Positions 7,596 through 45,725 of a stretch of 58,425 bases of DNA are shown one piece after another. A program made the position numbers and the translations under genes. This DNA is from Nautiliaceae bacterium (lineage in GTDB: Bacteria > Campylobacterota > Campylobacteria > Campylobacterales > Nautiliaceae), in contig JALTBU010000203.1 of NCBI GenBank assembly GCA_027008345.1, forward strand, positions 1 through 58,425, in the 5' to 3' direction. How positions within the stretch are numbered: the first letter of the stretch is position 1; every line of letters begins with the position of its first letter. The notes below the pieces were generated by a model. That model saw only the letters and a program-made list of their open reading frames with translations. It had not been told where the DNA came from and searched no databases.

Positions 7596-9115
7596 TACAT
7601 ACCTCCAAAAAAGCTAAATGCTTTATTTGCAATATCAAAAATTGGTTGCGGATTAACTCCGAAATAAACAATTAAGAATGAAAATACTGCCAAAGCAAAT
7701 TTTTCAGGGAAACTCATATGGAAATTAGCTTTTTTAACTATTTCACTCGGTTCACCGTGAATTGCTCTTCTAACCGCCCAAATAATATAACCGGCACTGA
7801 TAAATCCTGCAAGAGCAATTAAAGCAATCCACCAACCGAATGATTTAACTGCTGAAATAATAATAGTAAGTTCACCTACAAATCCCATAGTTCCAGGTAA
7901 ACCTAACGCAGCCATACCTGCTAAAATAAAAATTGTACTTGCATACGGAGCATATTTCATAATACCACCCATTTCATCCATATACCATGTATGGGTTTTA
8001 TGATGAAGCCATCCTGCAATTAAGAATAAAGGTGAAATTACAATTGCATGTCCTATCATTTCATAAAGAGCTGCGCTAAGCCCGTCATAACTCATAGTGG
8101 CAATTGCCACAACCACAAGACCCATATGTGAAATAGATGAATACGCAACCATTTTTTTAATGTGTCTTTCATATACAGCAAGAAGTCCTGCAAAGAATGT
8201 TGTTGCAAGACCAAGCACAACCATCCACATAGCAAATTTAGCAGTAGTAGATGGTAAAAGTTCAACAGTAAATCTTATAAGTCCATATGCACCCATTTTC
8301 AAAAGCACACCTGCTAATAAAACAGAAATGCTGCTTGGTGCCTGAACGTGTGCATCAGGAAGCCAAGTATGAAAAGGGAATGTAGGAAGTTTTGCTGCAA
8401 ATCCTAAAAACATTAACCACCAAATAAGTGCAGGTGTTGCAAGAGAAGCTTCTTTAATTAATGTAATATCCCAATAACCTGTTTGTTTAAATAATAAGAA
8501 AAATCCTACAAACATAAACATCGCAAAAACGTGTGTGTATAAGAAAAATTTAATTGCAGCATATACTCTACTTGGAAGTTTGATTTCAATATTAAATACT
8601 TTTTTAACTTCCTCACCTTCTGCACCCCAGTAACCAACAAGGAAAAGCATAGGAACAAGTGTAAGTTCCCAAAACATAAAAAACCATAATACATTTGTAG
8701 TCATAAATACACCAAAAATCGGTCCACTAAATAAAATCAAAAGACTAAAATAAGCAGCCTGATTTTTTTCTTCCCAAGATGTAAATACAACTAAAATCAA
8801 AAGCCCTGCTGTAAGCAAAAGCATTGCAACACTCAAAGCGTCTATTTGAAGTGTAAGACTAAATCCAAAAGCCGGTACGCTTAAAAATTCACCAAGTGGT
8901 AAAAAACCAGTTGATTTAATATATTGCAAAACTTCCGGTGCAAAAGCATAACTTTCCGGATGCATTATTTGGTTTAACCAATTTAGTGAAATTATAAAAA
9001 GTACTACAAACCATATAAGCGCCACATATTTAGTTATATGCTGTGCTCCTCTTGTCAAAAAATAGACAAGGGCCGAGAGAAAAATCGGCGCAAAAATAAT
9101 ATCAACCGCTACCAT
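7595..9115 (-). CDS. nuoM: complex I subunit M (antiporter-like)
   Basis: 506 aa. FHTWLPDAHVQAPSSISVLLAGVLLKMGAYG is the NuoM/ND4 signature stretch. Confidence 0.92.
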   Translation of the reverse strand: MVAVDIIFAPIFLSALVYFLTRGAQHITKYVALIWFVVLFIISLNWLNQIMHPESYAFAPEVLQYIKSTGFLPLGEFLSVPAFGFSLTLQIDALSVAMLLLTAGLLILVVFTSWEEKNQAAYFSLLILFSGPIFGVFMTTNVLWFFMFWELTLVPMLFLVGYWGAEGEEVKKVFNIEIKLPSRVYAAIKFFLYTHVFAMFMFVGFFLLFKQTGYWDITLIKEASLATPALIWWLMFLGFAAKLPTFPFHTWLPDAHVQAPSSISVLLAGVLLKMGAYGLIRFTVELLPSTTAKFAMWMVVLGLATTFFAGLLAVYERHIKKMVAYSSISHMGLVVVAIATMSYDGLSAALYEMIGHAIVISPLFLIAGWLHHKTHTWYMDEMGGIMKYAPYASTIFILAGMAALGLPGTMGFVGELTIIISAVKSFGWWIALIALAGFISAGYIIWAVRRAIHGEPSEIVKKANFHMSFPEKFALAVFSFLIVYFGVNPQPIFDIANKAFSFFGGM

Positions 9116-10966
9116 TTACAGCCCCTTTACAATTATTAAGATTGCAATAACAATTATAGCAACACCTATTACCATTTGTCCCATATAACCACCAATTCTA
9201 CCTGTATGTCCTATTTTGAAGAACTTATATGTATAAAGTGACATAGCCACAGTTGCGTTAACTATATAATCAATTACATATGTATCAAACCATCTTGCGG
9301 CTTTTGCCATAGCATTTACAAAAATATTTTTAGAAATCCATGTAATCATAGCTTCAACATAATAACCATTAAAAAGTACTTGATGGATTGTCTGTACAAA
9401 ATGATGAGATGCTATTTTATAAAGAAGATTTAATCCTTTAACATATAATCCCACAACAATTAAGAAAATAATTAACATTGAAGTAAGCATAAATGCTGTC
9501 AACCCTTCAACTTCTGGCTCTACTACTTCTTTTCCTACGATATAATGAACTATATCACTTTGCCAAATTGAAATAAAAAGTGTAGTAAATGCCAAAATTC
9601 CAAGAGGAAGTCTCATCCAAATATTACTTGGTTTATGAACGCTTCCTGCTATATCTTCATTTCTTGGTTCACCAAGGAATATTAAAATCCAAAGTCTTGT
9701 AATATATGCAATAGAAAGCAGTGCTGCAATAGTTACAAAAGTAGCAGTAAATCCATTACCCCACTCCCATGCGGCACTAACAACCATCTCTTTTGAGAAG
9801 AAACCACTAAATGGTGGAACACCTGCAAGTGAGAGTGAACCCATTGCAAAGAATAATGCCACCCAAGGAGCTGTTTTAATAAGACCACCGAGTTTCCATG
9901 CATCTTTTGTATGATGTGCTATATAAATTACCGCACCCGCTGCAAGGAATAGCAACGCTTTAAAGATTGCATGGTTTACAAGATGAAGCATACCTGCTGC
10001 CAAACTTCCAACACCAAGACCTACAAATGCAATTGAAAGATGCGACATTGTAGAATAAGCAAGTATTTTTTTAATCTCTTTTTGAACAAGTGCAGAAGTA
10101 GAACCAATGAATGCTGAAAGAGCAGCAACATTTGCAACTATAAATAAAGCTTCTGTATAGGCAAAGAAATCAAACATTCTTGCAACTATATAAATACCAC
10201 TGTTAACCATTGTCGCACCATGGATAAGTGCAGAAACAGTAGTAGGTCCCTCCATTGCGTTCATAAGCCATGGATATAATGGAAACTGACCTGATTTACC
10301 TATAGCACCCATAAATACGAAAAGTGCTACAACCAATGCAAGAGTTTTATTTAATTCACCAGCGTCTGCTAAATGATTTAATTCTACTAAATTTGTAGTT
10401 CCTACAAAAATCATTAAAAGAGCAATTGCAGCTAATATAAATATATCACCGAATCTTGTATAAAGAAAAGCCTGCATACCTGCATCAGCTGCTGATTTTT
10501 TATAATACCAAAAGCTGATTAATGCATAACTTGCAAGCCCCATAAATTCCCATCCAATAAAGGCACCAATTAAATCTTTTGTAATAACAAGTAAAATCAT
10601 ACCGCCTATAAAGAAAAGTACTTTTGCATAATATCTTGGCTGATCTGGATCTTCACCCATATAATCATGAGCAAAATGGATATCTAAAAACCCAAGACCA
10701 GTTGCAATTAAAAGCATTACAATAGATAAATGGTCAATATAAATTCCAAATGGAATAGTGAAGTTACCATAATGTATCCAACTTAAATCAAAACTAATAG
10801 GAGTGTTTGAATATTTAATAAATATAGTAACACTTGCTAAAAATAAAACTGCACCGATTATTTCTGCTGTCCAGAAAGCAAGAGGCTGTTTAAACTTACC
10901 TAATATATATGCTAGCGCCGCCCCGATAAAAGGCGCTATTAATAAAACATATACTGCATTATTCAT
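9116..10966 (-). CDS. nuoL: complex I subunit L (antiporter-like, long lateral helix)
   Basis: 616 aa. It contains GWEFMGLASYALISFWY, AYSTMSHLS and a C-terminal extension, as in NuoL/ND5. Confidence 0.92.
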   Translation of the reverse strand: MNNAVYVLLIAPFIGAALAYILGKFKQPLAFWTAEIIGAVLFLASVTIFIKYSNTPISFDLSWIHYGNFTIPFGIYIDHLSIVMLLIATGLGFLDIHFAHDYMGEDPDQPRYYAKVLFFIGGMILLVITKDLIGAFIGWEFMGLASYALISFWYYKKSAADAGMQAFLYTRFGDIFILAAIALLMIFVGTTNLVELNHLADAGELNKTLALVVALFVFMGAIGKSGQFPLYPWLMNAMEGPTTVSALIHGATMVNSGIYIVARMFDFFAYTEALFIVANVAALSAFIGSTSALVQKEIKKILAYSTMSHLSIAFVGLGVGSLAAGMLHLVNHAIFKALLFLAAGAVIYIAHHTKDAWKLGGLIKTAPWVALFFAMGSLSLAGVPPFSGFFSKEMVVSAAWEWGNGFTATFVTIAALLSIAYITRLWILIFLGEPRNEDIAGSVHKPSNIWMRLPLGILAFTTLFISIWQSDIVHYIVGKEVVEPEVEGLTAFMLTSMLIIFLIVVGLYVKGLNLLYKIASHHFVQTIHQVLFNGYYVEAMITWISKNIFVNAMAKAARWFDTYVIDYIVNATVAMSLYTYKFFKIGHTGRIGGYMGQMVIGVAIIVIAILIIVKGL

Positions 10967-15744: not shown

Positions 15745-15881
15745 ATACTTCTCCTTTTTCTCAAAATATTATCAAAACTTTTTAGATACCTGTTTTTAAT
15801 ATAGCGTATTATAAGTTAAAATTATAATAAATTTTGTCTTATTTATTTAATATATTTTTAATGTGTTACAAATTGTAATAA

Positions 15882-17639
15882 TTATAGTTTAAATCCAAGT
15901 TCTTTTTCAGCATCAAAAGCATTTGCTTTTTCTTTTTGAATCTCTTCAACAAAATCTTTAACAAAAAATATAGGTTTTTTCTTCATAGCAACTTTTAAAG
16001 CCGTGTTTTTTACAATAAGCTCAATCTGAGCCGGTGTAAGCTCGTATTTAGCAAGAATTTTAATATCAAAATTTTCCTCAAAATCTGCATTTTTAGGCAG
16101 TTTTATTTTCCATACTTTAATTCTGTCTTTAAATGATGGTTTTTCAAATTTTATTTTATAATCAAACCTTCTTGAAAAAGCTTTATCAATAGTTTCTAAG
16201 AGGTTTGTAGTAGCAATCAATACACCATCAAACTTTTCAAGCTGTTCAAGAAAAATATTTTGCATTTGATTATGCATTTTATCAGCACTACTAAAACTTG
16301 CAGTGGTTCTTGTAGATAAAAATTGGTCTGCTTCGTTTAGTAACAAAACAGGTTTTATTTTAAGTTTATCAGAAATTTCATAATATTCATCAAACATTCT
16401 TCTTACATTTTTTTCACTCTCTCCCACATACATAGAGAGAATTTTGCTTGAATCAAGACTTAAAACAGGTTTTTTAAGTTCATTTGCAATAGAATATGCG
16501 GTAAGTGTTTTACCTGTACCAGGATGCCCATAAAAAATTATTCTCGCAGATATATCATCAGTTGTTTTTATATTCCATTTTTTAAGTAAATTTTGAACTT
16601 TCTTATCTGTCTGTTTCAAAACATTTTTTATCATTTCCATTGTTTTTTTAGGAAGCACTACATCTTTTAGTGTAGTTTCAGGTTCTACAAAATCAAAAAT
16701 AGTATCTTTAACAATATGTTCAAGTTTGTGTTTCTTGCGTGGATGAATAAGCTCGTTTAATATTTCTTCATTTATAAAATATATTTTTGTATATCCTCCA
16801 AAAGCCCCAAAAAGTTCATCATAATCCAAAATACCATCATTTAAAAGTTTTGAAGATTCATCAAGTAAGCTTCTGTTTTTAATTCTTTCAATCTCATCAT
16901 TACTTATAAGATTTAAAAGATAATTCATCTCCCTCGCATTTTCATTTGTCGAGGTATATTCTTCTTTTAAGAGTGCAAGAAAAATAATCTCTTCTTTGTC
17001 ATTAAGTTCATTTTCTACAATAAAATTATGTACCGGTAGATCTATTTTAGTTTTATTTATTCTCTCTTTTATCGTATTTTCGATAAGTTTTAATTTACTT
17101 TGAAGTCTTTTAATAGATGAAGATTCATTTGAATAGCTGTTTTTTAAATTAGCAAGCTGTGTATAAATTTCTATTCTTAAAAACTGGTCTTGAAGATATT
17201 CAAGATGGTCCGTGTAAGGTTTTTTTTCAGGTATCATTAAATCAAGGGAACCTTTTTCAAGAAGTTTTAGAAATGAAACAGATAAAGAAACATTGGCATT
17301 GTAAAGTTCGAGTATATTTAAATCCGGTGTTTTTACTCCAAATGAGGCACTTACCATCCACCCTTCATCAATAAGATGTTTTATAAATTCTGCATATTCA
17401 ATAGCTTCTAATTTATCTCTTTCAAACACTTCATTTAAAAGTTCTCTAACTCTTATATCTTCTTTACCCTCTAAATATCTATCAAGCATATATTGAAGAA
17501 TTTTAATTTCTTCATTACTAACACCTAATATCTCATAAATTTTACTTTTTTTAGGATGTTTTAAAAACGCCTTTATGTTTTTAATCAAAAGTTCTCCTTG
17601 ATTTTTATATAATTTTATCAAAAAAGGCATTAAATGCAA
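15882..17639 (-). CDS. AAA+ ATPase with a long uncharacterised N-terminal region
   Basis: 585 aa with a single C-terminal AAA module: Walker A GHPGTGKTLTA, Walker B PVLLLNEADQF, and sensor/Arg-finger region TTNLLETIDKAFSRRFDYKIKF. The track start is TTG at 17639. An ATG at 17630 (MPFLIK...) would remove the 6-nt head-to-head overlap with rsmE. Confidence 0.85.
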   Translation of the reverse strand: MHLMPFLIKLYKNQGELLIKNIKAFLKHPKKSKIYEILGVSNEEIKILQYMLDRYLEGKEDIRVRELLNEVFERDKLEAIEYAEFIKHLIDEGWMVSASFGVKTPDLNILELYNANVSLSVSFLKLLEKGSLDLMIPEKKPYTDHLEYLQDQFLRIEIYTQLANLKNSYSNESSSIKRLQSKLKLIENTIKERINKTKIDLPVHNFIVENELNDKEEIIFLALLKEEYTSTNENAREMNYLLNLISNDEIERIKNRSLLDESSKLLNDGILDYDELFGAFGGYTKIYFINEEILNELIHPRKKHKLEHIVKDTIFDFVEPETTLKDVVLPKKTMEMIKNVLKQTDKKVQNLLKKWNIKTTDDISARIIFYGHPGTGKTLTAYSIANELKKPVLSLDSSKILSMYVGESEKNVRRMFDEYYEISDKLKIKPVLLLNEADQFLSTRTTASFSSADKMHNQMQNIFLEQLEKFDGVLIATTNLLETIDKAFSRRFDYKIKFEKPSFKDRIKVWKIKLPKNADFEENFDIKILAKYELTPAQIELIVKNTALKVAMKKKPIFFVKDFVEEIQKEKANAFDAEKELGFKL

Positions 17640-18293
17640 TTTTTATACTATCCGGATACTTCTGATACAGTTATATTAAGCGGAGAAGCACATAAATACC
17701 TTTTTAAGGTAAGAAGAATAAAAAAAGACGAAATTATAAAAATAAGAAATTTAAAAGACGATTATCTTTATCATTACAAAATCAAAGAAATAAATAAAAA
17801 AGAAGCGGTTTTAATATTAGACAAAAACGAATTCAAACCTCAAAAACCCTCAAAATTTTTTCATCTTGCATGGTGCATGATAGATCCTAAAAACATAGAA
17901 AAAACACTTCCAACATTAAATGAAATGGGGGTTGGTAAAATAAGTTTTATATATTGCGATTTTTCTCAAAAAAATTTCAAATTAAAACTTGATAGACTTA
18001 AAAAAATTCTTATTAATTCAAACCAACAATGCGGAAGAAGTGATATAATGGAAATTGAAATAATAGATTCAAGTAAAGAATTTTTCGAAAAATATCCACA
18101 ATTTACGGCACTTGATTTTGACGGAGAAAAAATAAAATGCGACAAAAGATATTCAAATCCTTTTTTAATTGGACCGGAAGGAGGATTCAGTGAAAGCGAA
18201 AGAAAATATTTCATACAAAAAATAAAATTTGACAGTTTCATTTTAAAAAGTGAAAGCGCAGCATGTGCCATCAGTGCCAAAATTTTATTATAA
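17634..18293 (+). CDS. rsmE: 16S rRNA (uracil1498-N3)-methyltransferase
   Basis: 219 aa. The N-terminal PUA-like opening is GEAHKYLFKVRRIK and the C-terminal SPOUT motif is LIGPEGGFSESE. Confidence 0.85.
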   Translation: MQFLYYPDTSDTVILSGEAHKYLFKVRRIKKDEIIKIRNLKDDYLYHYKIKEINKKEAVLILDKNEFKPQKPSKFFHLAWCMIDPKNIEKTLPTLNEMGVGKISFIYCDFSQKNFKLKLDRLKKILINSNQQCGRSDIMEIEIIDSSKEFFEKYPQFTALDFDGEKIKCDKRYSNPFLIGPEGGFSESERKYFIQKIKFDSFILKSESAACAISAKILL

Positions 18294-18294
18294 T
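18289..18294 (+). promoter_or_regulatory. possible -10 hexamer for the downstream seven-gene operon
   Basis: An exact TATAAT lies 26 nt upstream of the TTG start at 18321, with AAAGGCGG (Shine-Dalgarno-like) in between. TATAAT is common by chance in DNA this A+T-rich. Confidence 0.2.
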
Positions 18295-18320
18295 ACGCAA
18301 AATATTATCAAAGGCGGTCA

Positions 18321-18956
18321 TTGAAAATAGCTTTAATTGAAGATGAGTCTCTCATAAGAGAAACCTTACATGAACTTCTTCAAACCGAATATGAAACAGA
18401 AAGCTTTGAAAATATAAAAGAATTCTTAAAAACCGACAAAAAATTTGACATAATTGTCGGAGATATAAACCTGCCTGATGGTAATTTATTGAATGAACTG
18501 AGAAAATTCCCACATTTAATCGAAAACTCATTACTTATTATTATCTCAGCAGATGGAAATATTGAAAACATTAAAAAATCATTTGATTTAGGTGCTGTAG
18601 ATTTTATAAAAAAACCATTTGAATTTGAAGAACTCTTACTTAGAATCGAAAGATTTATAAAAAAGAATAAAAATATAAAATTAAGTGATAATATATTTTA
18701 TTCACCCTCAAAAAAAGTTTTAATTATTGATAATGAAACAGTAAACCTTACATTTAAAGAATCTGCGTTTTTAGAACTTTTAATAGAAAAAAACGGTGCG
18801 TATGCCACATTCGAAGAAATCGAAAATACAGTATGGGGAGAGCCTATAATGGCTAATACATTAGCCGCTCTTGTTAAAAGATTAAGAAAAAAACTTAAAA
18901 AAGATTTAATAGAATCCAAGCGATATTTAGGATATCGGTTAATAAAATCATCTTAA
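18321..18956 (+). CDS. OmpR/PhoB-type response regulator
   Basis: 211 aa with a TTG start. Receiver residues are present (IEDES, DIIVGDINLPDGN, IIISA, DFIKKPF). The C-terminal winged helix ends in RYLGYRLI. Confidence 0.9.
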   Translation: MKIALIEDESLIRETLHELLQTEYETESFENIKEFLKTDKKFDIIVGDINLPDGNLLNELRKFPHLIENSLLIIISADGNIENIKKSFDLGAVDFIKKPFEFEELLLRIERFIKKNKNIKLSDNIFYSPSKKVLIIDNETVNLTFKESAFLELLIEKNGAYATFEEIENTVWGEPIMANTLAALVKRLRKKLKKDLIESKRYLGYRLIKSS

Positions 18957-19086
18957 TATCATATTTTATATTTACAATTGCATAAAAAACAATAAAGGTT
19001 AAACAATTTTTAAAAAGAAGACTCAAAATCTGGCAAAAATTTTTTTCCATGATCTTAAAAATAAACTTTTAGGAATAAAATTAATA

Positions 19087-20823
19087 TTGAGTCTTGCGAA
19101 AAAAAAACCTGAAAAAACAAACGAAATCTTTGACAAAGTACATAAAAACATAGATGAGAGTATTGATTTAATAAAAGATTATCTGAGTTTAGAACAATAT
19201 AAAAAAACAAAATTTTTAAAGCATTCGAGTTTTTGTTTAAACTCTTTAATTGAAGAAATTTTACATGAACTTGAAAATGAAATAAATAAAAAAAATATTT
19301 CAGTCCATTATAGTGTTACCGAAGAAAATTTAATTATAAAAACAAACAAAGAATGGCTTAAAAAAGCACTTTTTAACATAATACACAATGCCGTAAAATA
19401 CAATAAACAAAATGGTCATCTTTTTATAAATATTGAATATACAAAAAATGGCTATCTTCTAATAGTTAAAGATACAGGCATAGGAATAAGTAAAAAAGAC
19501 AAAGAAAAAATTTTCGAAAGATATTATACCAAGGATAAAGATGGCAGCGGAATCGGGCTCAATTTTTCAAAGACGGTAATAGAATCCCTTGGAGGCAAAA
19601 TAAAATTTGATTCAGTCTTCAATAAAGGCACGGTATTTTATATATATCTTCCAAAAATAAGTAAAAAAATTAAGCTGAAAATGTTAGCTTCAGCATTAGC
19701 AGGATTTTTTATTGTCTCTTTTATAACAATAGATTATTTTTATTGTTTAATTCCTCAAAAAGTGCAAATAAAAATTTCCGGAAATATTAAAATAATAAAA
19801 TTTGAAAACGGGATTGTTGCAAAAGCCAATAAAAATGACGAAATCAAAATAATAGCTTATAAAAACATATTTAATACTAAAACAAGAAACAAATTAATCT
19901 TACAAAAATCAGATATTGAAATAGCTACAAATGGCAATAAGATTAAAGTTATAACTCCAAATACTTCTTTTAGCAATTTAGGAACAAAGTTTGAAACAGT
20001 GGCAAAAGATAAAACTGCAATCAGTGTATTTGACGGAAAAATAAAAAATAAAAGAACAGTAGTAAATACAGATGAAGGGCTTATAGTTTCAAAAACCATA
20101 CAAAAAGTTCCTTTGCCCCAAAAAATATCTTATCTAAAAATACAAAACAAACCAAAAACTATAATAAGATGGTCAAGTCCTTATAAATATTTTAAAATTT
20201 TAATATCAAAAGATCGATCTTTTTCAAATCCTCCTATTTATGGCTTTTATACTGCTAACAAAATAATTTCTCCTAGTTTAAACGATGGAATATGGTATAT
20301 CAATATCAAAGCAAAACATAACGACCTTTATTCAATACCAGTTGTTAAAAAATTTATATCTTTAAATAATTATTATAAAGCTTTAAATTATTATAAAAAC
20401 AATAATATTCAAGAAGCTCTTAAATATATCGAAAAAAGCGTCTCAACAATAAACCATATATCTCCGTTGCCATATTATTTATATGCTAAAATACTTTTTA
20501 AATTAAAAAATTACAAAAAGTCATTAAAATATATAAAAGAAGGAGAAAAAGTGGGGCAAAAAGAAAAAATAAAATTATTAAAAGCGAAAATATTTTATTT
20601 AAAAGGAAAATATAAAAAAGTTATAGAAATTCTAAAAAACCCTTCAAATGAAGAAGAAAAATTACTTGTGGCAAAAGCATTTTATAAATTGGGTAAATAT
20701 AAAATTGCCAACAAATATTTATACAGGATACTTGAAATAAATCCTGATAATAAAGAAGCAAAAAAATTTTTAACATTTCCAAAAGGTTTAAAAAAGCAAG
20801 GATTTTCAAATGCATTTAATTGA
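19087..20823 (+). CDS. atypical sensor histidine kinase: N-terminal kinase core, one TM helix, extracytoplasmic FecR-like plus TPR region
   Basis: The HATPase_c boxes are present: N box NIIHNAVKYNKQNG, G1 VKDTGIGIS, F box IFERYY, G2 GSGIGLNFS. A TM helix follows (LASALAGFFIVSFITIDYFYCLI), then a FecR-like stretch (TPNTSFSNLGTKFETVAKDKTAISVFDGKIK), then TPR-like repeats. The H-box FFHDLKNKL lies in frame upstream of the called start, so the true 5' end is probably near 19003-19030 (see findings). Confidence 0.8.
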   Translation: MSLAKKKPEKTNEIFDKVHKNIDESIDLIKDYLSLEQYKKTKFLKHSSFCLNSLIEEILHELENEINKKNISVHYSVTEENLIIKTNKEWLKKALFNIIHNAVKYNKQNGHLFINIEYTKNGYLLIVKDTGIGISKKDKEKIFERYYTKDKDGSGIGLNFSKTVIESLGGKIKFDSVFNKGTVFYIYLPKISKKIKLKMLASALAGFFIVSFITIDYFYCLIPQKVQIKISGNIKIIKFENGIVAKANKNDEIKIIAYKNIFNTKTRNKLILQKSDIEIATNGNKIKVITPNTSFSNLGTKFETVAKDKTAISVFDGKIKNKRTVVNTDEGLIVSKTIQKVPLPQKISYLKIQNKPKTIIRWSSPYKYFKILISKDRSFSNPPIYGFYTANKIISPSLNDGIWYINIKAKHNDLYSIPVVKKFISLNNYYKALNYYKNNNIQEALKYIEKSVSTINHISPLPYYLYAKILFKLKNYKKSLKYIKEGEKVGQKEKIKLLKAKIFYLKGKYKKVIEILKNPSNEEEKLLVAKAFYKLGKYKIANKYLYRILEINPDNKEAKKFLTFPKGLKKQGFSNAFN

Positions 20824-22126
20824 TATTATAAATAAATCGGATATCGCTTTAATAGAAGGTGCAAGTAAACTTGGAAAATTAACATTCGCACTTTATGCAT
20901 ATTCTCAAAACGAAAAAATAGAAAAAGTAACAATTTTATCCTCAATCCAGAAAAAATTGATGCAAAAAAGAATCCACTCAATTCAAAATTTAAATGATGA
21001 AAATATTAATAAGTTATTGAAAAATATTGAATTTTTATGCTTGAAAGAAAATTGGCTTGAAATAAAATCTTCTTATGGATTTGATTTCATTTATGAAGAC
21101 ATTGAAAGAATAGTACAAAATACTAAATGTGATGCAATAATACTTCACAGGCCTGATTTGATGTTTAGTAATAGCGAATACGATCTTGCAAGATTGTTTC
21201 TTGAAAAATTTATTGAAATTGCAAACAATTATGGGAAAAAAACATTTATTACAAGTGATATGAATCATTTTATCACAGAATTTTTAGAAAATTACACAGA
21301 TATTTCTATGCAGATGAAAAAAAAAGACAATATAAGAAAAATAATAATAAAACATTCTTTGTATCCCGTAACATCAAATTTATACGATTTCATTTTTAAA
21401 AACAACAAATTTGAACTTATAAATGAAAAAGAAAATTCTAATATTGATATTGTAACATCCAAAAATGATATGTTAGTTATTTCACAAGATGAAAGATTCA
21501 AAAAAATACATTCCTATATTTTTAGTAAATATTTTAATATAGAATTTGCATCAAACCTCAGCGAGGTTATAAAAAAAATAGAAAACAAACCTGAAATAAT
21601 AATTTATCAAGACCAAGAAACGATTCCTGAATTTGATATCTGTAATACAGTAAAAAATATATCACCTCATTCAAATATTATTTTTATACTAAATAAAGAC
21701 TATATAAGAGCAGAAGATAAAATGGATGCTATACAATCAAAATGTTATGAAGTTTTTAGCAGAAACTTTAATCTTGAAGAATATATTTTAACCATAGAAA
21801 AAATAAATCAAAATTTTTTCTATTCAAATAAACTCAAACTTTTACCTCCCCAAAAAATTGCAACTAATTATGAAAATTTCTGTAAAGCCATTAAATCACT
21901 TTATAATGAAAGAATATTTTTCTCAGTAGTAGAATATTCTGAATTTAAAGATGAAATAATAAGCAGACTAAGAACCCATGATATTATTTATAAAAAAGAC
22001 GAGCTTATTTATCTTTGTCTTGTAAATGTAACCAAAGAGATGTTTGAAAGTAATTTAAAAGAAAAATTAGAATTAACAGATAAATACCATTTTATTGAAG
22101 CCATAGAGTGGGACGGTAAATGCTAA
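20810..22126 (+). CDS. RecA/KaiC-like (degenerate P-loop) plus receiver-like plus GGDEF-remnant protein; BcsE-like architecture (hypothesis)
   Basis: 438 aa. Residues 17-24 read GASKLGKL, which is GxxxxGK followed by Leu rather than Ser/Thr. Residues 221-330 or so have a receiver-like alternation (MLVISQDE...PEIIIYQDQE...IIFILNKD...EVFSRNF). The C-terminus reads FFSVVEYSEFKDEIISRLRTHDIIYKKDELIYLCLV. It overlaps both neighbouring genes. Confidence 0.6.
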   Translation: MHLIDIINKSDIALIEGASKLGKLTFALYAYSQNEKIEKVTILSSIQKKLMQKRIHSIQNLNDENINKLLKNIEFLCLKENWLEIKSSYGFDFIYEDIERIVQNTKCDAIILHRPDLMFSNSEYDLARLFLEKFIEIANNYGKKTFITSDMNHFITEFLENYTDISMQMKKKDNIRKIIIKHSLYPVTSNLYDFIFKNNKFELINEKENSNIDIVTSKNDMLVISQDERFKKIHSYIFSKYFNIEFASNLSEVIKKIENKPEIIIYQDQETIPEFDICNTVKNISPHSNIIFILNKDYIRAEDKMDAIQSKCYEVFSRNFNLEEYILTIEKINQNFFYSNKLKLLPPQKIATNYENFCKAIKSLYNERIFFSVVEYSEFKDEIISRLRTHDIIYKKDELIYLCLVNVTKEMFESNLKEKLELTDKYHFIEAIEWDGKC

Positions 22127-25100
22127 AAAAAGCATTGATTTTTTTTATGTTTTCAATATTAATTTTAGCCGATACATTGGAAATTGATGCTAACCAACTT
22201 GAAAAAGAGATATTAAAAAACCCAAATGATATATTAAACCGTTTAATACTTGCAAAATATTATGAAAATCACAAAAATTATAAAAAAGCTTTAATTTTTA
22301 TAAACCAGATTTTGGAAAAAGATCCAAAAAATAAAAAGGCATTGTTATTAAAAAAAGAGATATTATCTTTCCAAAATACACAAAAACTTAATGAAAAATA
22401 CGGAAATCTCGATAAATATATAAACAATCTTTATGAAAAAGAAAAATATAAAGAAATACTTTCTTTTTATACAAAGTATAAACCTTTATTAAAACCAAAA
22501 ACCCTTATTAAAATAGCAAGAATCGCAATGTGGGAAGGAGATTACGATCTTTCTTTAAAGATATTAAATTCTTTTAAAGAAAATAATTTGGATGTATTGG
22601 AAATAAAAGCATATGATTATTTCTTCAAAGGCGATTATATTAAAGCAAACAGATTATTTAAAATCCTTTATAATGCAACCGGACAAAAAGATTATGGAAT
22701 AAAACTTATTGAGACATATATTCGGCTCGGCGATGCATTAAGTGCAAAAAAAGTGCTTTATTCTTTGAAATACAAACTTTCAAAACAAGAATACCAAAAA
22801 TATTTTAATTTAATTGAAAAAAAACTTTTTTCTTACATAAATATATTAAAAAAGCAATATACAAAAAATCCTACATATAAAAATTTAAAAAAATTTATCA
22901 TTGCATTATATGATTTACAACCTGATGAAGCAATAGAAATTGTAAAAAATTATCTCAAAAACAACCCTGAAAATTTCAAAGCCAAAATTTTACTGGCTAA
23001 ATTATATATATGGAAAGGAGAAACACAAAAAGCAACAAAAATTTTGGATACTTTTACAGATACAGACAATTATCAGGCAAAACTGCTTTATGGAAAAATT
23101 CTTGCTTGGAATGGAATGTATAAAAAAGCCAAAATATTTTTAATGGATGTATATCAAAATGGAAATACAAAACAAAAATATGAAGCATTAAAAATGCTCG
23201 GATTTATAGAAATGTGGCAAAATCATAAAGAAAATGCAAAAAAAATTTTTGAAAAACTTTATAAAATAAATCCAAAAGATGAAGAAGTAAAAGAAGCACT
23301 TATGATTTTAAAAGGAAAAATAAAACCACTTATTATCAAATATGAAAAACTTCTAAAAAAATATCCCAATAATATGGATTATGTACTGAAATTAGCTGAT
23401 TTATATTATATGCTCCCAAACTATGAAAAAGCGGCAAAATATTATGAAATCTATCTTCAACACAATCCTGATAAAATAGAAATATATAAAACGCTTGGAG
23501 ATATTTATCTTGAATTAAAAAAATATTATAAAGGTTTTTCAGACTGGGAATATTATGCAGCTATAAAAAACACCCCTGACGCATATCTTGAATTAGCAAA
23601 AAGATATTACTGGAATGGTTTTATGAAAGAATCATTAGATATTTTAAATAAACTCATAAATAAATATCCAAATTACAAACAGGCAATAGAACTAAAAGCT
23701 AAAATTTTAAAAATAAATCCAAGATATCTTAATTATAATTATGAAACGGCTATTGAAAAATATTTCAACAACAGAGCCCAAAAACTATTAATTTATGGAG
23801 ACAGAAGTTATTTTGCAGGTTTTTATAAGACTGCCCAAAATTATTATAAAGATTATCTTTTTATAAATCCAGATGACGCAAATGTAAGGGAAAAATATGC
23901 TTATACACTTGAATTTACCGGTAATTATTCGACTGCGGCAGGAGAGTTTTATAATCTGTTTTGGTATAAAAAAAACCCAATTATAGAATATCATTATGCA
24001 TATTGTTTGCAAAAATCAGGGAAACTAAAAGAAGCTAAAAAAATATATGAAAAATTACTTAACGAAGTACCAAAACCACTTCCGGAAAAATTAAAAAAAT
24101 TTATTTATAACTGGAAAAAAGCATGGGAAAGTATGAATTTTGAAAAATATGCTTCATTTTATGACAACAAAATAAAAAACAACATTTATTGGAGATTAAA
24201 AAAACAAAATATTTTTAAAAAAGCAGGTTTTATAAGCGTAGGGATATATAACCCTATTCTACTTCAAAAAAAAAGAAATATTTATAAAATAAAATTTTAT
24301 CAGGTATATGCATCTCAAATCAAAAAAGATAAAGGATATAAAACTTTATGGATAAAATGCAATAAAGACAAATGCCTCATAATAAAAGAAAAATGGTCTC
24401 CAGGTAAATTCAGACCAGATAATCCTGAAAACTCTCTTCTTATCTTGATAAGAGAAAATTTACAAGAAATTGACACTCCAAAGACTATTATAAAAAACAA
24501 TGAAAATATTACCTATGAAAATATACCGTCAAAAAAACAAAATAAAAACAGCATTCAAGACGAAAACAACCTTATACAGCCAAATGACTTTATGCCTTTG
24601 AATAAAATTTTAAAAAAAAAAGAAACTAAAATAACACTTGCTGAAAAAAACATTACAAGAGAAACAAACACTTCTTTAATCAAAGAAAATTTAAATATTG
24701 AAAAATTTAAGATAGTAAAAGTTACAAAAAAAAACGCAATAACCAAAGAAATTAAAAAAAGACCACCTAATTATTTTTTAATTTCATTATATCATTTTCA
24801 TGATAATCAAAAAACTCACTATAATCACATCGAGGCAAAATATTTAAAAAATTTTGGAAGTTTTGACGCCGGCATATTTGTGCGATTTTTTGAAATAAAA
24901 CAAGATTTTAAAAAAGATTCAGGAAACATAACAGCCGGTATTATTAGATACAGAGGATATGAAATAACGGCAGGTATCGATAATGCAAAAAAAAGTGATT
25001 TGTATTTAAATATAAAATCTGAATATAAACACCATAATATAAATATTTTATATGAAAACCTTGTATATTCAAGAAAAACTATATGCTCTTTAATTCATAA

Positions 25101-25575
25101 AAGATTAAAACTTGAAGCAAGCAGATACAAACAGCTTAACAACATAAGAGGTCTTTGGTATTCTATCGCAGGAGAATATATTGATGATGGAAATTTAGTT
25201 TTTACTCCCCAAATTGATTATGATTTTTATAATAATAAAATATTTAATTCGCCATATGCGTTTTTTTTCTCAGGATGGTATCAGTTTAATTCAAAACAGA
25301 CAAATTGTTACTATTCACCTGATAAAACTGATTCTAATCTTGTAGGTATTAAATTTTATCCTAAAAACAAATTTGCAGATATAATGTTTAAAGGAGGGAT
25401 TGGTTATAGCATTTGGGATAAAGCATTTTTATATAAGTTAGGATTTAATGTAACCAAAAATATAAAATTATTCAATATAAATGCAAAGTGTGAATATGCA
25501 AACACTTCACCTGTTAACGCTCCTAATAATTATAAAAGTTATGAGTGTTATTTAAATATGGGAAAAACATGGTAA
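22120..25575 (+). CDS. outer-membrane exopolysaccharide export protein: periplasmic TPR scaffold plus C-terminal beta-barrel (PgaA/BcsC/PelB-like architecture)
   Basis: 1151 aa with a signal peptide (MLKKALIFFMFSILILA). About 650 aa of TPR repeats come first, then a small globular insert and a low-complexity Asn/Lys linker. The last 270 aa or so have alternating-hydrophobic strands and end in ...YLNMGKTW, a terminal aromatic as in OM barrels. Confidence 0.75.
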   Translation: MLKKALIFFMFSILILADTLEIDANQLEKEILKNPNDILNRLILAKYYENHKNYKKALIFINQILEKDPKNKKALLLKKEILSFQNTQKLNEKYGNLDKYINNLYEKEKYKEILSFYTKYKPLLKPKTLIKIARIAMWEGDYDLSLKILNSFKENNLDVLEIKAYDYFFKGDYIKANRLFKILYNATGQKDYGIKLIETYIRLGDALSAKKVLYSLKYKLSKQEYQKYFNLIEKKLFSYINILKKQYTKNPTYKNLKKFIIALYDLQPDEAIEIVKNYLKNNPENFKAKILLAKLYIWKGETQKATKILDTFTDTDNYQAKLLYGKILAWNGMYKKAKIFLMDVYQNGNTKQKYEALKMLGFIEMWQNHKENAKKIFEKLYKINPKDEEVKEALMILKGKIKPLIIKYEKLLKKYPNNMDYVLKLADLYYMLPNYEKAAKYYEIYLQHNPDKIEIYKTLGDIYLELKKYYKGFSDWEYYAAIKNTPDAYLELAKRYYWNGFMKESLDILNKLINKYPNYKQAIELKAKILKINPRYLNYNYETAIEKYFNNRAQKLLIYGDRSYFAGFYKTAQNYYKDYLFINPDDANVREKYAYTLEFTGNYSTAAGEFYNLFWYKKNPIIEYHYAYCLQKSGKLKEAKKIYEKLLNEVPKPLPEKLKKFIYNWKKAWESMNFEKYASFYDNKIKNNIYWRLKKQNIFKKAGFISVGIYNPILLQKKRNIYKIKFYQVYASQIKKDKGYKTLWIKCNKDKCLIIKEKWSPGKFRPDNPENSLLILIRENLQEIDTPKTIIKNNENITYENIPSKKQNKNSIQDENNLIQPNDFMPLNKILKKKETKITLAEKNITRETNTSLIKENLNIEKFKIVKVTKKNAITKEIKKRPPNYFLISLYHFHDNQKTHYNHIEAKYLKNFGSFDAGIFVRFFEIKQDFKKDSGNITAGIIRYRGYEITAGIDNAKKSDLYLNIKSEYKHHNINILYENLVYSRKTICSLIHKRLKLEASRYKQLNNIRGLWYSIAGEYIDDGNLVFTPQIDYDFYNNKIFNSPYAFFFSGWYQFNSKQTNCYYSPDKTDSNLVGIKFYPKNKFADIMFKGGIGYSIWDKAFLYKLGFNVTKNIKLFNINAKCEYANTSPVNAPNNYKSYECYLNMGKTW

Positions 25576-26873
25576 AAACATTTTTTATAATTTTTTTGTC
25601 AATACTTATTATTTTGATACTTACTTTTTTATTAACCAGTTATTATCAGACTTTTTACAGTTTAAACAATATAATTATAAAATTAGGTATAGGAATAATA
25701 CTTGTATTTATTACTCTAGTAGTCCTTAGATATATGCTTTTATTATTTTTTTCAATTCTTAAAGTAATTATGAAAACAGCTGATGAAAAAAATAAATCTC
25801 TTGCAAAAAGTAATAAAAAAGTTTCAGTTATAATACCTGCTTATAATGAAGAAAAAGTAATTGAACAATCTATGAAAGGAATTATTAATCAGACATATCA
25901 AAATTTAGAATTAATAGTTGTAGATGACGGAAGTACTGACAACACATCATTAAGAGCACAAAAATTTTCTCATCTTCCATTTGTAAAAGTTTTAAAAAAA
26001 TCAAACAGTGGTAAAGCAAATGCAATAAATTATGGAATTGAACACTCAAATGGTGAGCTTATAATGGTAGTTGATGCAGATTCAAAACTTAAAGAAAATG
26101 CAGTTGAATTAATGGCAAAATATTTTGAAGATCCTGATATAGCTGCTGTTGCAGGCTCAGTATATGTCAGTAATCAAGTAAATATACTTACTAAACTTCA
26201 AGCCCTTGAATATATTGAGGGTCTAAATATGGTAAGAAATGGGCAAGCATTTTTAAAACTTGTAAATATTATACCAGGACCTATTGGTATGTTTAGAAAA
26301 CACGCTTTATATGAAGTAGGATTGTATGATGATGATACTTTTGCAGAAGATTGTGATGTGACTCTTAAATTAATTACTCATGGCTATAAAATAGACTTTG
26401 AATCAGAAGCTGTAGCAAAAACAGAAGCACCTGAAAATATTTTTGATTTAATAAAACAAAGATACAGATGGACAAGAGGTATTTTACAAGCTATAAAAAA
26501 ACATAGATCTCTTTTATGGAATTTCAAAAGTAACCCTTCCGCTTCATTTACAATGTGGTATATGCTTTTTGAAGCAATATTGTGGCCTTTTATGGACTTT
26601 TGGGTAAATATGTTTATTATATATCTTGCTATAACAACAGGTGTTTCTCTTCTTATTTTTTATTGGTGGAGCCTTTTTACAATACTTGACGTCGCAGGGG
26701 CACTTTATTGTATACTTATAACTAATGAAAGTTTATCAATAGTATTTTATGCTGTTTTTTACAGATTATTCTTTATTCTTTTTATAAATTTGATTAAAAT
26801 ATTATCAACAATAGAAGAATGGTTTGGGATAGAAATGAACTGGGGTAAACTTGAAAGAAAAGGAAGAATATGA
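25545..26873 (+). CDS. processive family-2 glycosyltransferase/synthase (PgaC/IcaA-like)
   Basis: 442 aa. It has an N-terminal TM region, VSVIIPAYNEEKVIEQS, LIVVDDGSTDNT, VVDADS and the QRYRWTRG (QxxRW) motif, followed by C-terminal TM helices. An alternative start is ATG at 25569 (MVKTFF...). Confidence 0.88.
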   Translation: MLFKYGKNMVKTFFIIFLSILIILILTFLLTSYYQTFYSLNNIIIKLGIGIILVFITLVVLRYMLLLFFSILKVIMKTADEKNKSLAKSNKKVSVIIPAYNEEKVIEQSMKGIINQTYQNLELIVVDDGSTDNTSLRAQKFSHLPFVKVLKKSNSGKANAINYGIEHSNGELIMVVDADSKLKENAVELMAKYFEDPDIAAVAGSVYVSNQVNILTKLQALEYIEGLNMVRNGQAFLKLVNIIPGPIGMFRKHALYEVGLYDDDTFAEDCDVTLKLITHGYKIDFESEAVAKTEAPENIFDLIKQRYRWTRGILQAIKKHRSLLWNFKSNPSASFTMWYMLFEAILWPFMDFWVNMFIIYLAITTGVSLLIFYWWSLFTILDVAGALYCILITNESLSIVFYAVFYRLFFILFINLIKILSTIEEWFGIEMNWGKLERKGRI

Positions 26874-27052
26874 ACCTGCTTGCATTTTTGGCGCTGCTGA
26901 TACTTATAATAACAATAATCACTTTAGTATTCGGTATAATAGCTTATTTTTTATATAAAACAAGGGAAAAAACCAAAAAAAATAGAAATAAAAAACTTAT
27001 TTATGAAGATGTATTAAATGAAGTCGGCGGCAATTATATATTTTTTGAATAG
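26870..27052 (+). CDS. small single-pass membrane protein (possible PgaD/IcaD-like synthase partner)
   Basis: 60 aa. There is an ATGA stop/start overlap with the synthase gene. It has one TM helix (LLAFLALLILIITIITLVFGIIAYFLY) and a basic tail (KTREKTKKNRNKK). The functional analogy comes from position only. Confidence 0.5.
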   Translation: MNLLAFLALLILIITIITLVFGIIAYFLYKTREKTKKNRNKKLIYEDVLNEVGGNYIFFE

Positions 27053-28841
27053 ATTAAAAACTTTAACAGTTTTTATTTTCATAATACTTTTAACTTTTTT
27101 AAGCGGATATATTATTTATCAGCTATTACCTAATGTAAATGGTAATTATATTGCTTTAAATAATCCTAATTCTGTCAAGATAAAAATACTTCTCTCTGAT
27201 ACAACAATAGATATGTTAAGTAATAATGGTTTAAATCCGGATAAATATAAAAATGATATACAAGACCTTGCTTTAAAATTAAAAAAAAATGGAATTTCAT
27301 ATAAAATTATTTCTGACAAAGAACTTCCTTTTTTAAATAAAAATGATATTCTTTTTGCTCCTGATACTTATGCAGTTTCTCAATTCGGCAAAAAAAATAT
27401 AAAAAAATTTTTAAGCAAAGGCGGAACATTAATTTTTAATTTCAGATTTGGTTACTTTAACGAAAACAACCGATTTTTTAACGCCAAAACAATAGAAGAA
27501 ATTACAGGCCTTAAAAAATCAATAGATTCAATACCAAAAAAAGAAGCTACTTTTTTTATTCAAAAAAGAATTTCTCCTCTTAATATGTCCAAAGTTCCTT
27601 TTAGACAGGATTTAGTTGTATATGACCCTTTACCAATATTTCATTCAGATTATATTCCAGATATTGTTTTAACTAACTGGTCAATTACAACACCTCCGAT
27701 GGTCAAGAAAAAATATTTATCTATTTATGACGACGGTATTGCTTGGCACGGATTTTATGGTAAAGGCAAATGGTTTTATTTCTCTTTTCCAACATATGTT
27801 TTTTTAGATATGAAAGACAAAGAATTTAAGAAAATTATAAATAATATAATATTATTTTCAAAAAGCCTTATTTCAATTTCATCTTATCCCTTTATTAATA
27901 AAAAAAATGGAATTTTCATTTCAGAGGATACGGAATATAAATATCCTTACGGATACAATTTTGCCACACTTGCTAAAAAACATAAAATTGACGTCACCCT
28001 TTTTGCGGTAGCAAAACTTGCCAAAAAATATGAAAACATAACAAAAGCAATAGCCAAATTTCAAAACTGTGAAATAGGCTCACATAGCTATTCTCATATC
28101 AAAATAATGGGTGCCCCTATTGATGTGGAAAAAAGAGAAATAATATATTCAAAACAACTGCTTGAAAAAATCACAGGCAGAAAAATTTACGGATTCAGAC
28201 CTCCAAGAGAAGAAATTGATGATACAATGGAAAAACTTATTAAACAAGCAGGATATATTTATGTAATGGAAAAATCCAAGCCTTTTTTACTGCCTATGAA
28301 AAGAAATTTCGGAATTATTACAATTCCAAGACTTGGAACAGATGATTATACTTATCTTATAGATACGGATTTCAATAAATCCCAAATCCTAAAACACATA
28401 ATACTTGAAACCAATTTTTTAACTGCATTAAATGGAACATATACATTAAGTGTTCATACACATTTATTATCATATAAATCAAATATCACCGTTTTAGATG
28501 CATATTTTACCTATTTAAATCATCATTTGAATTTAAATCCTTTAAAAGGTAAAAATATAGCGCTAAAATCGATACAGGCACAAAATATATATTTTAATTA
28601 CACAAGTACAAATAATATCATTTCACTTAATATAACAAATAATAATACACAAATGCTCAAAAATATTTCTTTTAGACTCTACAATCCAAATATTAAAATA
28701 ACCGATATCATACCTGAAATAAGCACTTACAAAATAAAAATTCTTTTACATAATAAAAGTAGAAGATATTATGATTTGCAAATTAGTCATATTCCGCCTA
28801 AAACAACTGTTACAATTTTTATAAAATACAAAAAATTATAA
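27018..28841 (+). CDS. membrane-anchored polysaccharide deacetylase (CE4/NodB domain) with an unknown N-terminal domain and a C-terminal beta-rich domain
   Basis: 607 aa with a TM anchor ([19 protein letters not shown]). The NodB motifs are [18 protein letters not shown] (HxxxH) and GFRPPREE (RPP). An alternative TTG start at 27045 would shorten the overlap with the 60-aa ORF. Confidence 0.82.
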
Positions 28842-43009: not shown

Positions 43010-43017
43010 TGTAACTC

Positions 43018-43042
43018 CGCTAAAAGAAAAAGACTTTTAGCG
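43018..43042 (-). terminator. perfect 9-bp stem-loop between flgE and maf (attenuator or stabiliser; not a canonical intrinsic terminator)
   Basis: cgctaaaag (43018..43026) pairs perfectly with cttttagcg (43034..43042) across a 7-nt loop. On the transcript it follows the flgE stop by 8 nt. No U-tract follows it, and it runs straight into the GGAG Shine-Dalgarno of maf. Confidence 0.35.
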
Positions 43043-43050
43043 AAATTATA

Positions 43051-45636: not shown

Positions 45637-45665
45637 TTTTGAATCCTTTGAACTTTTTTATTTAA

Positions 45666-45683
45666 TAGCAATTTTTATTCCAA
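45666..45683 (-). promoter_or_regulatory. sigma-54 (RpoN) promoter of flgE
   Basis: The reverse complement reads TTGGAATAAAAATTGCTA, which has GG-N10-GC spacing and fits the TTGGAAC-N5-TTGCTT form used by epsilonproteobacterial flagellar middle genes. It lies about 30 nt upstream of the AAAGGA Shine-Dalgarno and ATG. Confidence 0.75.
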
Positions 45684-45725
45684 AATCTATAAATTCTCAA
45701 TACAAATTTTAAAAATCGCTTCTAA

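Follow-up and report, generated by a model that had tools for sequence, protein, structure and literature searches.

A BcsE-like protein as candidate cyclic di-GMP sensor of a synthase-dependent exopolysaccharide operon in a Nautiliaceae bacterium

How could cyclic di-GMP (c-di-GMP), as a second messenger, reach an exopolysaccharide (EPS) synthase that has neither a PilZ domain nor a PgaD partner? The question is raised by an operon in a 58,425-nucleotide stretch of DNA from a Nautiliaceae bacterium (assembly GCA_027008345.1, contig JALTBU010000203.1, positions 1 to 58,425; hereafter the window). The operon encodes a glycosyltransferase family 2 (GT2) synthase, a single-pass peptide of 60 amino acids (aa), a carbohydrate esterase family 4 (CE4) deacetylase, a tetratricopeptide repeat (TPR) protein, a two-component system and an unannotated protein, here called X (20810-22126). 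The analysis indicates that X is very probably related, in structure and by evolution, to BcsE, the subunit that distinguishes the E. coli-type cellulose operons of beta- and gamma-Proteobacteria (PMC8892547). By analogy with BcsE, X probably acts as the cytosolic c-di-GMP sensor of a synthase-dependent EPS machine, and would be a testable candidate for how c-di-GMP reaches such synthases.

Gene X consists of 438 codons from an ATG start, and its reading frame was confirmed. It shares 14 nt with the end of the upstream histidine kinase gene and 7 nt with the start of the downstream TPR gene, and so lies within a tightly packed operon; a preliminary description made from the sequence alone had called it operon-embedded. 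The product is soluble and cytosolic, with zero predicted transmembrane (TM) segments, and besides the two-component system it is the sole such protein of the operon. Pfam and NCBIfam scans of X and of its three pieces, taken up to E 10, returned nothing meaningful, only noise (Eco57I, GFO_IDH_MocA, ArgoMid).

The relationship to BcsE emerged from structure. A full-length AlphaFold2 model of X, built on a 22-sequence alignment (mean predicted local distance difference test score, pLDDT, 87.1), has three domains (1-205, 219-333 and 337-438), the first with a nine-stranded sheet according to DSSP. When this model was searched with Foldseek against 350,542 PDB chains, the best four matches were all E. 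coli BcsE (9fo7_E, 9fnn_U, 9fp0_E and 9fnn_E; E 2.7e-15 to 2.9e-14), with alignments of 477-493 columns that cover the whole length; KaiC chains ranked next (~1e-10). The TM-scores against BcsE are low (0.28-0.30 in the full-length search) because the relative domain orientations differ, which is to be expected for BcsE because its degenerate receiver (REC) domain is mobile and swings 144 degrees between crystal forms (PMC7840130). The C-domain was also modelled alone (residues 334-438; pLDDT 84.7; topology alpha-beta-alpha-beta-beta-alpha-beta), and its ten best PDB matches are all the degenerate GGDEF domain of BcsE (6ybb, 6ybu, 6tj0, 9fnn, 9fo7; probability 0.96-0.99, TMq 0.51-0.60), followed by catalytic GGDEF domains (T. 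maritima 4urg, SiaD, GcbC, YfiN, DosC). In the model, the RxxD motif that begins with R388 stands directly before beta2 and the DE pair at the beta2-beta3 hairpin, the arrangement that is canonical for I-site and GGDEF.

Further support for the first two folds came from the family of X. The family profile matches the NtrC1 receiver (PDB 1zy2) with E 5.5e-6 over residues 224-355 of X, a signal that needs the profile, as a single-sequence phmmer search of the PDB gave a faint NtrC receiver match (E 0.029). Among 70 family members, nine touch the Pfam KaiC family (PF06745; best E 2.4e-5), one touches DnaB_C and eight touch Response_reg; AAA_14 was also touched. The RecA-type, receiver and GGDEF layout proposed in the preliminary description, with a receiver rhythm over residues ~221-330, is therefore borne out, the receiver fold spanning residues ~221-340, and none of the three folds proved unrelated. 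Its account of BcsE as an ATPase-like, a REC and a GGDEF domain, all degenerate, with c-di-GMP bound through RxxD, likewise agrees with the published work (PMC7439463, PMC7840130). X has the same domain order as BcsE, the same nine-stranded N-domain sheet and, as in BcsE, a receiver devoid of a phospho-acceptor.

The active sites of the parent folds are degraded throughout X. In the N-domain, the preliminary description had correctly read a Walker-A shape with Leu in place of Ser/Thr (GASKLGKL, residues 17-24) and a Walker-B-like strand, CDAIILHRPD, which falls at residues 107-116 and is a strand in the model (109-113), with His-Arg replacing the acidic residue. Neither the Walker A GxxxxGK[ST] nor the Walker B hhhhD/E of RecA/KaiC-type ATPases is thus present. 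The positions G17, G22, K23 and L24 are at least 90% conserved in 22 close homologues but only about 70% in the 84-member family, where the motif is lost in one clade and absent from about 30% of the members (e.g. P0071, P0075-P0080); H113 and R114, at the position of the Walker-B acid, are 81% and 85% conserved. In the middle domain, the phospho-acceptor Asp54 of NtrC1 aligns to Q267 (21608-21610), a position where the family has N, Q, Y, F or H, and the domain is therefore a receiver incapable of phosphorylation: the phospho-acceptor Asp expected at the end of beta3 in a canonical receiver (PF00072) was found neither in X nor in the family. The receiver Lys position, which the preliminary description had rightly given as substituted, is R318 in X and K in 33 of the 84 members. 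In the C-domain, the DELIY hairpin is variable across the family, so the domain must be catalytically dead as a cyclase; X has no GG(D/E)EF hairpin, and PF00990 was neither matched by X nor present in the Pfam families listed for its 70 relatives. Also missing are the substrate P-loop and helix alpha1, with only 11 residues between beta1 and RxxD in both models, so that the domain is trimmed to the same extent as, or more than, that of BcsE, in which both elements are also absent (PMC7439463, PMC7840130). The string EYSEFKD, which had been read as a relic of DxDxFKxxND, does follow beta1 as described, but it is unconserved in the 22-sequence alignment and was dropped as evidence.

Conservation is concentrated elsewhere. 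A first homology search yielded 22 homologues of X from Lebetimonas, Nautilia and metagenomes, all unannotated or labelled 'response regulator'. A profile search over 1.84 billion representatives then gave 216 matches, of which roughly 75 were further full-length relatives, and beyond them only generic receiver domains; the resulting wide alignment holds 84 sequences, down to ~17-20% identity. R388, D391, R300, D303 and K304 are invariant in the 22-homologue alignment. Across the 84 sequences, the top positions of the whole protein are R388 (100%), D391 (99%), Y338 (98%), R300 (98%), D303 (95%) and F337 (93%). All four Arg and Asp residues are among the five most conserved positions, and the chance that four named positions would all fall within the top five of 438 is about 3e-9. 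These residues form the only two RxxD motifs of X (R388THD and R300AED), where composition predicts 0.62. The former had been noted previously five residues before DELIY (D397), a position that holds, and RxxD is kept in every orthologue found; the latter, in the receiver-like domain, had been overlooked. For F337-Y338, at the start of the inter-domain helix, we infer a role.

Both motifs coincide with known c-di-GMP sites of BcsE. The comparison used BcsE and BcsF of E. coli K-12 from the genome record and a BcsE profile of 107 full-length sequences; since the global mode of hhalign gave uninterpretable statistics, the local mode was used together with a column-shuffle null. The family of X and that of BcsE align colinearly, X 70-417 with BcsE 77-444, with a score of 28.0 against 14.8 +/- 2.4 for shuffled profiles (maximum 24.0, n=60) and 17.7 for the reversed profile. 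R300/D303 is paired with E. coli R306/D309 and R388/D391 with R415/D418, and the spacing to the next strand and hairpin is identical in BcsE and X (LRATDERLL vs IRAEDKMDA; NRTGDIMTIGGNRLVLFL vs LRTHDIIYKKDELIYLCL); I329-E330, F337 and F357-C358 of X are also paired with identical BcsE residues. In the BcsE crystal structure, c-di-GMP is seen bound at the I-site R415xxD (PMC7439463), and R306ATD on the degenerate REC domain is a second I-site that stabilises an intercalated c-di-GMP dimer, as validated by isothermal titration calorimetry (PMC7840130). X therefore shares with BcsE an RxxD five residues ahead of the hairpin in its GGDEF-like domain and a second RxxD in its REC-like domain. The BcsE structures involved are PDB entries 6TJ0, 6YBB, 6YBU, 9FO7 and 9FNN, and the corresponding Pfam family PF10995 is named 'GIL'.

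Several observations weigh against reading X as a BcsE-like sensor. The absolute profile-profile signal is weak (hhalign probability 4%, pairwise E 0.01), and the Foldseek E-values of the C-domain are modest (0.013-0.06), as expected for only 105 residues, with an unambiguous ranking. True BcsE proteins all carry PF10995, which X did not match at E up to 10; for 70 relatives, scanned at E up to 1, the listed families include neither PF10995 nor GGDEF. X stops eight residues after beta4 and lacks the ~40-residue C-terminal BcsQ-binding tail of BcsE; accordingly, the local hhalign alignment ends at residue 444 of the 523 of E. coli BcsE, and the global mode reaches 465. No gene for BcsR or for a ParA/MinD-type protein (BcsQ) was found in the operon or in related loci. 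The 60-aa peptide has no sequence similarity to E. coli BcsF, and the GGDEF-EAL gene that lies near the operon in the window is not at the equivalent place in Nautilia lithotrophica. Without the BcsQ-binding tail and the BcsR and BcsQ genes, the output step of X must differ from that in E. coli. Other differences concern the proteins and their setting: X has 438 aa vs 523 aa and shares about 10-15% identity with BcsE; its P-loop is better preserved (GxxxxGK, against an aligned NVDRHEDA in E. coli BcsE); its operon is without BcsR, BcsQ, the pEtN transferase BcsG and the PilZ-bearing cellulose synthase BcsA and has instead a PgaC-like synthase without PilZ plus a CE4 deacetylase; and X occurs in Campylobacterota and a Pontibacterium, whereas BcsE has been described from beta- and gamma-Proteobacteria (PMC8892547).

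The small peptide extends the parallel with BcsE, which is likewise a cytosolic subunit of a synthase-dependent EPS operon that encodes a single-pass peptide of ~60 aa. The peptide consists of an N-terminal TM helix, the motif AYF(L/M)YKxRE (AYFLYKTRE in the window), a basic stretch and a C-terminal Y(I/V)FF(E/D) (YIFFE in the window). It is conserved, at 55-75 aa, in the window and the six related loci compared, with a cytosolic, basic and beta-prone tail, and an open reading frame (ORF) of 60-64 aa occupies the same slot in two further loci, L017 and L018. No Pfam family matched it. PgaD has about 137 aa and two TM helices, and an identity of the peptide with PgaD, given its 60 aa and single TM helix, is unlikely. 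It has the same layout and topology as E. coli BcsF, and the cytosolic tail of BcsF extends the nine-stranded sheet in the N-domain of BcsE by a beta-strand (PMC11470070). By this analogy the peptide could plausibly be the membrane anchor of X, a proposal to which we give slightly less than an even chance.

Table 1. Positions of the operon, of the parts of X and of corresponding features in related loci
Sequence	Feature	Position	Strand	Basis or gene order
Window	OmpR-type response regulator	18321-18956	+	Pfam/NCBIfam
Window	Histidine kinase, FecR and TPR in C-terminal part	19087-20823	+	Pfam/NCBIfam
Window	Gene X, BcsE-like, degenerate NTPase-REC-GGDEF	20810-22126	+	ORF, AlphaFold2 model, Foldseek
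Window	X residues 1-205, degenerate RecA/KaiC-type P-loop NTPase fold	20810-21424	+	DSSP, Foldseek KaiC, Pfam in members
Window	Walker-A-like GASKLGKLT, residues 17-25, Leu at Ser/Thr position	20858-20884	+	Sequence
Window	HRPD, residues 113-116, end of Walker-B strand, His-Arg for acidic residue	21146-21157	+	Model strand 109-113
Window	X residues 219-333, degenerate REC, receiver fold	21464-21808	+	Family profile vs PDB
Window	Candidate I-site II, R300-A-E-D303, in REC between beta4 and alpha4	21707-21718	+	Conservation, hhalign to E. coli R306ATD
Window	X residues 337-438, degenerate GGDEF, trimmed palm core	21818-22123	+	C-domain model, Foldseek
Window	F337-Y338, start of inter-domain helix	21818-21823	+	F337 93%, Y338 98%; F337 aligns with E. 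coli BcsE Phe
Window	I-site I candidate R388-T-H-D391, directly before beta2	21971-21982	+	Conservation, hhalign to E. coli R415TGD
Window	DELIY at beta2-beta3 hairpin, GG(D/E)EF position	21998-22012	+	Model, alignment
Window	TPR protein, 1151 aa, signal-peptide-like N-terminus, Cds6_C NTF2-like domain	22120-25575	+	Pfam/NCBIfam
Window	GT2 synthase, PgaC-like, 442 aa, multi-TM	25545-26873	+	Pfam GT2 families, TIGR03937
Window	60-aa single-pass peptide	26870-27052	+	TM prediction, cross-locus conservation
Window	Membrane-anchored CE4 polysaccharide deacetylase, 607 aa, N-terminal TM anchor	27018-28841	+	Polysacc_deac_1 E 2e-16
Window	Tll0287-like sensor-GGDEF-EAL protein, 692 aa	29427-31505	-	EAL 6.7e-62, GGDEF 2.6e-17, Tll0287-like 9e-30
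L001, Lebetimonas	Peptide	16010-16192		Gene order same as window
L001, Lebetimonas	~320-340-aa and/or HupE_UreJ_2 neighbour	17920-18921
L002, Nautilia (Nautilia lithotrophica)	Peptide	16061-16249		Gene order same as window
L002, Nautilia (Nautilia lithotrophica)	~320-340-aa and/or HupE_UreJ_2 neighbour	18016-18993
L009, metagenome	Peptide	5606-5833		X-484 aa-GT2-75 aa-CE4-BcsB-like-GH8-BcsC-like
L012, metagenome	Peptide	5885-6109		TPR-X-GT2-74 aa-CE4-GH8
L013, metagenome	Peptide	6555-6722		X-TPR-GT2-55 aa-CE4
L013, metagenome	~320-340-aa and/or HupE_UreJ_2 neighbour	8577-10835
L014, shorter contig	Gene order			X then directly GT2
L016, Nitratiruptor sp. SB155-2	Peptide	15792-15974		X-TPR(Cds6_C)-294 aa-GT2-60 aa-CE4-HupE
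L016, Nitratiruptor sp. SB155-2	~320-340-aa and/or HupE_UreJ_2 neighbour	17757-19684
L017, Pontibacterium, gammaproteobacterium	Gene order			X-TPR(Cds6_C)-GT2-60 aa-CE4
L017, Pontibacterium, gammaproteobacterium	~320-340-aa and/or HupE_UreJ_2 neighbours	8718-9941 and 18181-19197
L018, metagenome	Gene order			X-TPR(Cds6_C)-GT2-60 aa-CE4, as L017

Synteny ties X to the synthase. A GT2 gene sits by X in each of the ten loci whose flanks could be read, and GT2, the small peptide and CE4 occur together in all nine loci that are long enough, including Lebetimonas, Nautilia, Nitratiruptor, the gammaproteobacterium Pontibacterium and metagenomes (Table 1). The TPR protein adjoins X in most of the related loci. 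The conserved core therefore consists of X, synthase, peptide and deacetylase, usually with the TPR protein. In six loci (L009, L012, L013, L016, L017 and L018), the genes directly upstream of X are not those of the two-component system, which is a Nautiliales-specific addition outside the conserved cassette.

The polymer made by this cassette is less clearly indicated. The preliminary description had called the synthase 'PNAG-like', that is, of the poly-N-acetylglucosamine type. The GT2 is indeed PgaC-like, in that its best NCBIfam match is TIGR03937 (PgaC_IcaA), but its 194 bits fall below the cut-off of 422 (NodC, 116 bits), and related loci carry BcsB, GH8 and BcsC genes. The term is thus only approximate and is used with care. 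In L009 (1493-12845), a BcsB-like gene (PF03170), a glycoside hydrolase family 8 (GH8) gene and a BcsC-like porin gene (BCSC_C) come after the BcsE-like gene, the PgaC-like GT2, the peptide and CE4, and in L012 (605-9269) the cassette is accompanied by GH8. On account of such mosaic cassettes, the polymer could be beta-1,4-linked (chitin/chitosan-like) instead of beta-1,6-linked PNAG. A Pfam/NCBIfam scan found no PilZ domain in the GT2.

Taken together, RxxD-dependent binding of c-di-GMP by X likely controls the synthase, by analogy with BcsE. An intercalated c-di-GMP dimer would be clamped between R388xxD391 on the GGDEF-like domain and R300xxD303 on the REC-like domain, closing both domains, and the peptide would tether the N-domain at the membrane with its cytosolic tail, in the way that BcsF does for BcsE. 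Loaded X would then activate or stabilise the PilZ-less GT2 synthase and so supply the second-messenger control that PilZ gives to BcsA and PgaD to PgaC. The GT2 product would be de-N-acetylated by CE4 and exported with the TPR protein, and the c-di-GMP might come from enzymes such as the adjacent GGDEF-EAL protein. The earlier proposal that X is the missing c-di-GMP receptor of the EPS system is hence upheld as to fold, both RxxD motifs and synteny, and the receptor role itself is proposed by analogy.

Other roles for X have to be weighed against that of a c-di-GMP sensor. It is unlikely that X is a pseudo-receiver adaptor that would bind the histidine kinase or the response regulator through its REC-like domain and, independently of any nucleotide, link the synthase to the periplasmic FecR/TPR sensor, with the RxxD residues being structural or a protein interface. 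The receiver fold is genuine, X directly follows the response regulator and kinase genes with overlapping frames in the window, Lebetimonas and Nautilia, and some family members are labelled 'response regulator' or 'CheY-like' by NCBI and JGI; however, the cassette of X and synthase persists in the six loci in which the two-component system is not directly upstream, the phospho-acceptor is lost (Q267), and conservation sits on the two BcsE I-site motifs and not on the alpha4-beta5-alpha5 face as a whole. Somewhat more improbable is an active or nucleotide-binding KaiC/RecA-type NTPase that assembles or energises the secretion complex in the manner of BcsQ, with accessory C-terminal domains. 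Such a role would fit the conservation of GxxxxGK-L-T among close homologues (at least 90%), KaiC as the second-best structural match, the KaiC, DnaB and AAA Pfam matches in members and a P-loop better preserved than in E. coli BcsE. Yet Leu replaces the Mg-binding Ser/Thr and His-Arg the Walker-B acid, about 30% of the family have lost the P-loop, and conservation is far lower in the N-domain than at the two RxxD motifs.

Because the identity of the ligand rests on analogy, X might also bind something else at RxxD (another cyclic dinucleotide, pGpG or GTP) or regulate gene expression, as in the BcsE-S10/NusB proposal; the BcsE N-terminal domain has been reported to interact with antitermination factors (PMC7439463, PMC8892547). 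We consider this quite improbable, as RxxD I-sites in GGDEF folds are known c-di-GMP sites and X is strictly syntenic with the synthase and the membrane peptide, which speaks for a function at the machine. A broader and more tentative reading, compatible with X as a c-di-GMP sensor, is that the five-gene cassette constitutes an unclassified synthase-dependent system, neither Pga nor Bcs, that makes a partly de-N-acetylated GlcNAc polymer, with all c-di-GMP control exerted via a detachable BcsE-like sensor and a BcsF-like anchor instead of PilZ or PgaD, and that in some lineages is joined to BcsB, GH8 and BcsC genes. If so, the BcsE/BcsF module would be an ancient, portable regulator swapped between polysaccharide machines, and the better-preserved P-loop of X might also sense a second nucleotide.

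Comparison with other known systems places X more precisely. PelD of the Pseudomonas Pel system is similar in that an EPS machine of the synthase-dependent kind is switched on by a degenerate GGDEF domain that senses c-di-GMP via an RxxD I-site, and PelD was reported as the closest structural relative of the BcsE GGDEF domain (PMC7439463). PelD is, however, membrane-anchored with a GAF domain and lacks the NTPase-like and REC-like domains and the second I-site, whereas X has neither TM segment nor GAF; PelD was not among the top 50 Foldseek matches of the X C-domain. The PgaC-PgaD system resembles the operon in having a PgaC-type GT2 followed by a small membrane protein and CE4, with a synthase that, being without PilZ, needs an accessory factor for c-di-GMP control; in the E. 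coli PNAG synthase, c-di-GMP is bound at the PgaC/PgaD interface, and we know of no separate cytosolic sensor in Pga systems. The GT2 described here differs in falling under the PgaC equivalog cut-off, the small protein in being a 60-aa single-pass peptide, and related loci add BcsB, GH8 and BcsC. With KaiC/RecA P-loop ATPases X shares the N-domain fold and the GxxxxGK motif, but it has substitutions at the Walker A Ser/Thr and at the Walker-B acid, and its domain is single and fused to degenerate REC and GGDEF domains. X is neither a PelD nor a cyclase, and neither a phosphorylatable receiver nor a canonical ATPase.

In the literature, no report was found that describes BcsE-like proteins from Campylobacterota or from polysaccharide systems of another kind, and BcsE, GIL, a deacetylase and PNAG all go unmentioned in a 2025 preprint on EPS activated by c-di-GMP. 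What is new is the tripartite design with dual I-site motifs in an unannotated family, from Nautilia, Lebetimonas, Nitratiruptor, Nitrosophilus and a Pontibacterium, that would serve a GlcNAc-type synthase without PilZ and PgaD. About 100 diverse sequences now separate the BcsE core (two RxxD motifs, F337/Y338 and domain order) from lineage add-ons such as the BcsQ-binding tail, and the family assignment corrects the database labels 'response regulator' and 'CheY-like'. For this EPS system in vent Epsilonproteobacteria, X is also a first candidate as c-di-GMP receptor. GGDEF/EAL enzymes are numerous in these bacteria, N. profundicola for example having 18 GGDEF and 13 EAL proteins (PMC2628731). 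In the window, the GGDEF-EAL gene lies ~600 bp past the EPS operon on the opposite strand, with only a Ham1/RdgB gene between, and its product is a possible local source or sink of c-di-GMP.

Other components of the operon and of the related loci have features of their own. The histidine kinase is inverted, with an N-terminal DHp/HATPase core (residues ~5-190), a hydrophobic segment at ~195-223 and, beyond it, FecR (236-320) and TPR repeats (427-560); from this order, the sensing part would be C-terminal and probably periplasmic. The TPR protein has its repeats at about residues 23-660 and Cds6_C at 658-758, followed by about 390 unannotated residues that might be an outer-membrane porin; the BCSC_C and PgaA barrel models did not match the protein, which is a candidate export scaffold or porin. 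The CE4 protein has a long N-terminal region with weak glycoside-hydrolase-like matches (GH42M in the window, E 2e-6; Glyco_hydro_57 in L018, 16226-18040), which suggests that a glycosidase-like module is fused in front of the deacetylase, opposite to the order in PgaB. Often an unannotated protein of ~320-340 aa and/or a HupE_UreJ_2 membrane protein stands beside the cassette in related loci. The window has neither, and Ham1 directly follows the deacetylase. In L009, a stand-alone KaiC-family ATPase gene (PF06745; 500-1396, minus strand) lies divergently upstream of the BcsE-like gene.

Farther from the operon, the window encodes a 585-aa AAA+ ATPase with a winged helix (15882-17639, minus strand), whose best NCBIfam match is the anti-phage ATPase IteA, at 102 bits vs a cut-off of 510; it is also found at the same place in Nautilia lithotrophica (L002 4799-6511). 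On the same strand, a Maf-type flagellin glycosyltransferase-like gene (590 aa) is located beside two FlgE-like hook genes that are unusually large (861 and 638 aa) at 41237-47707.

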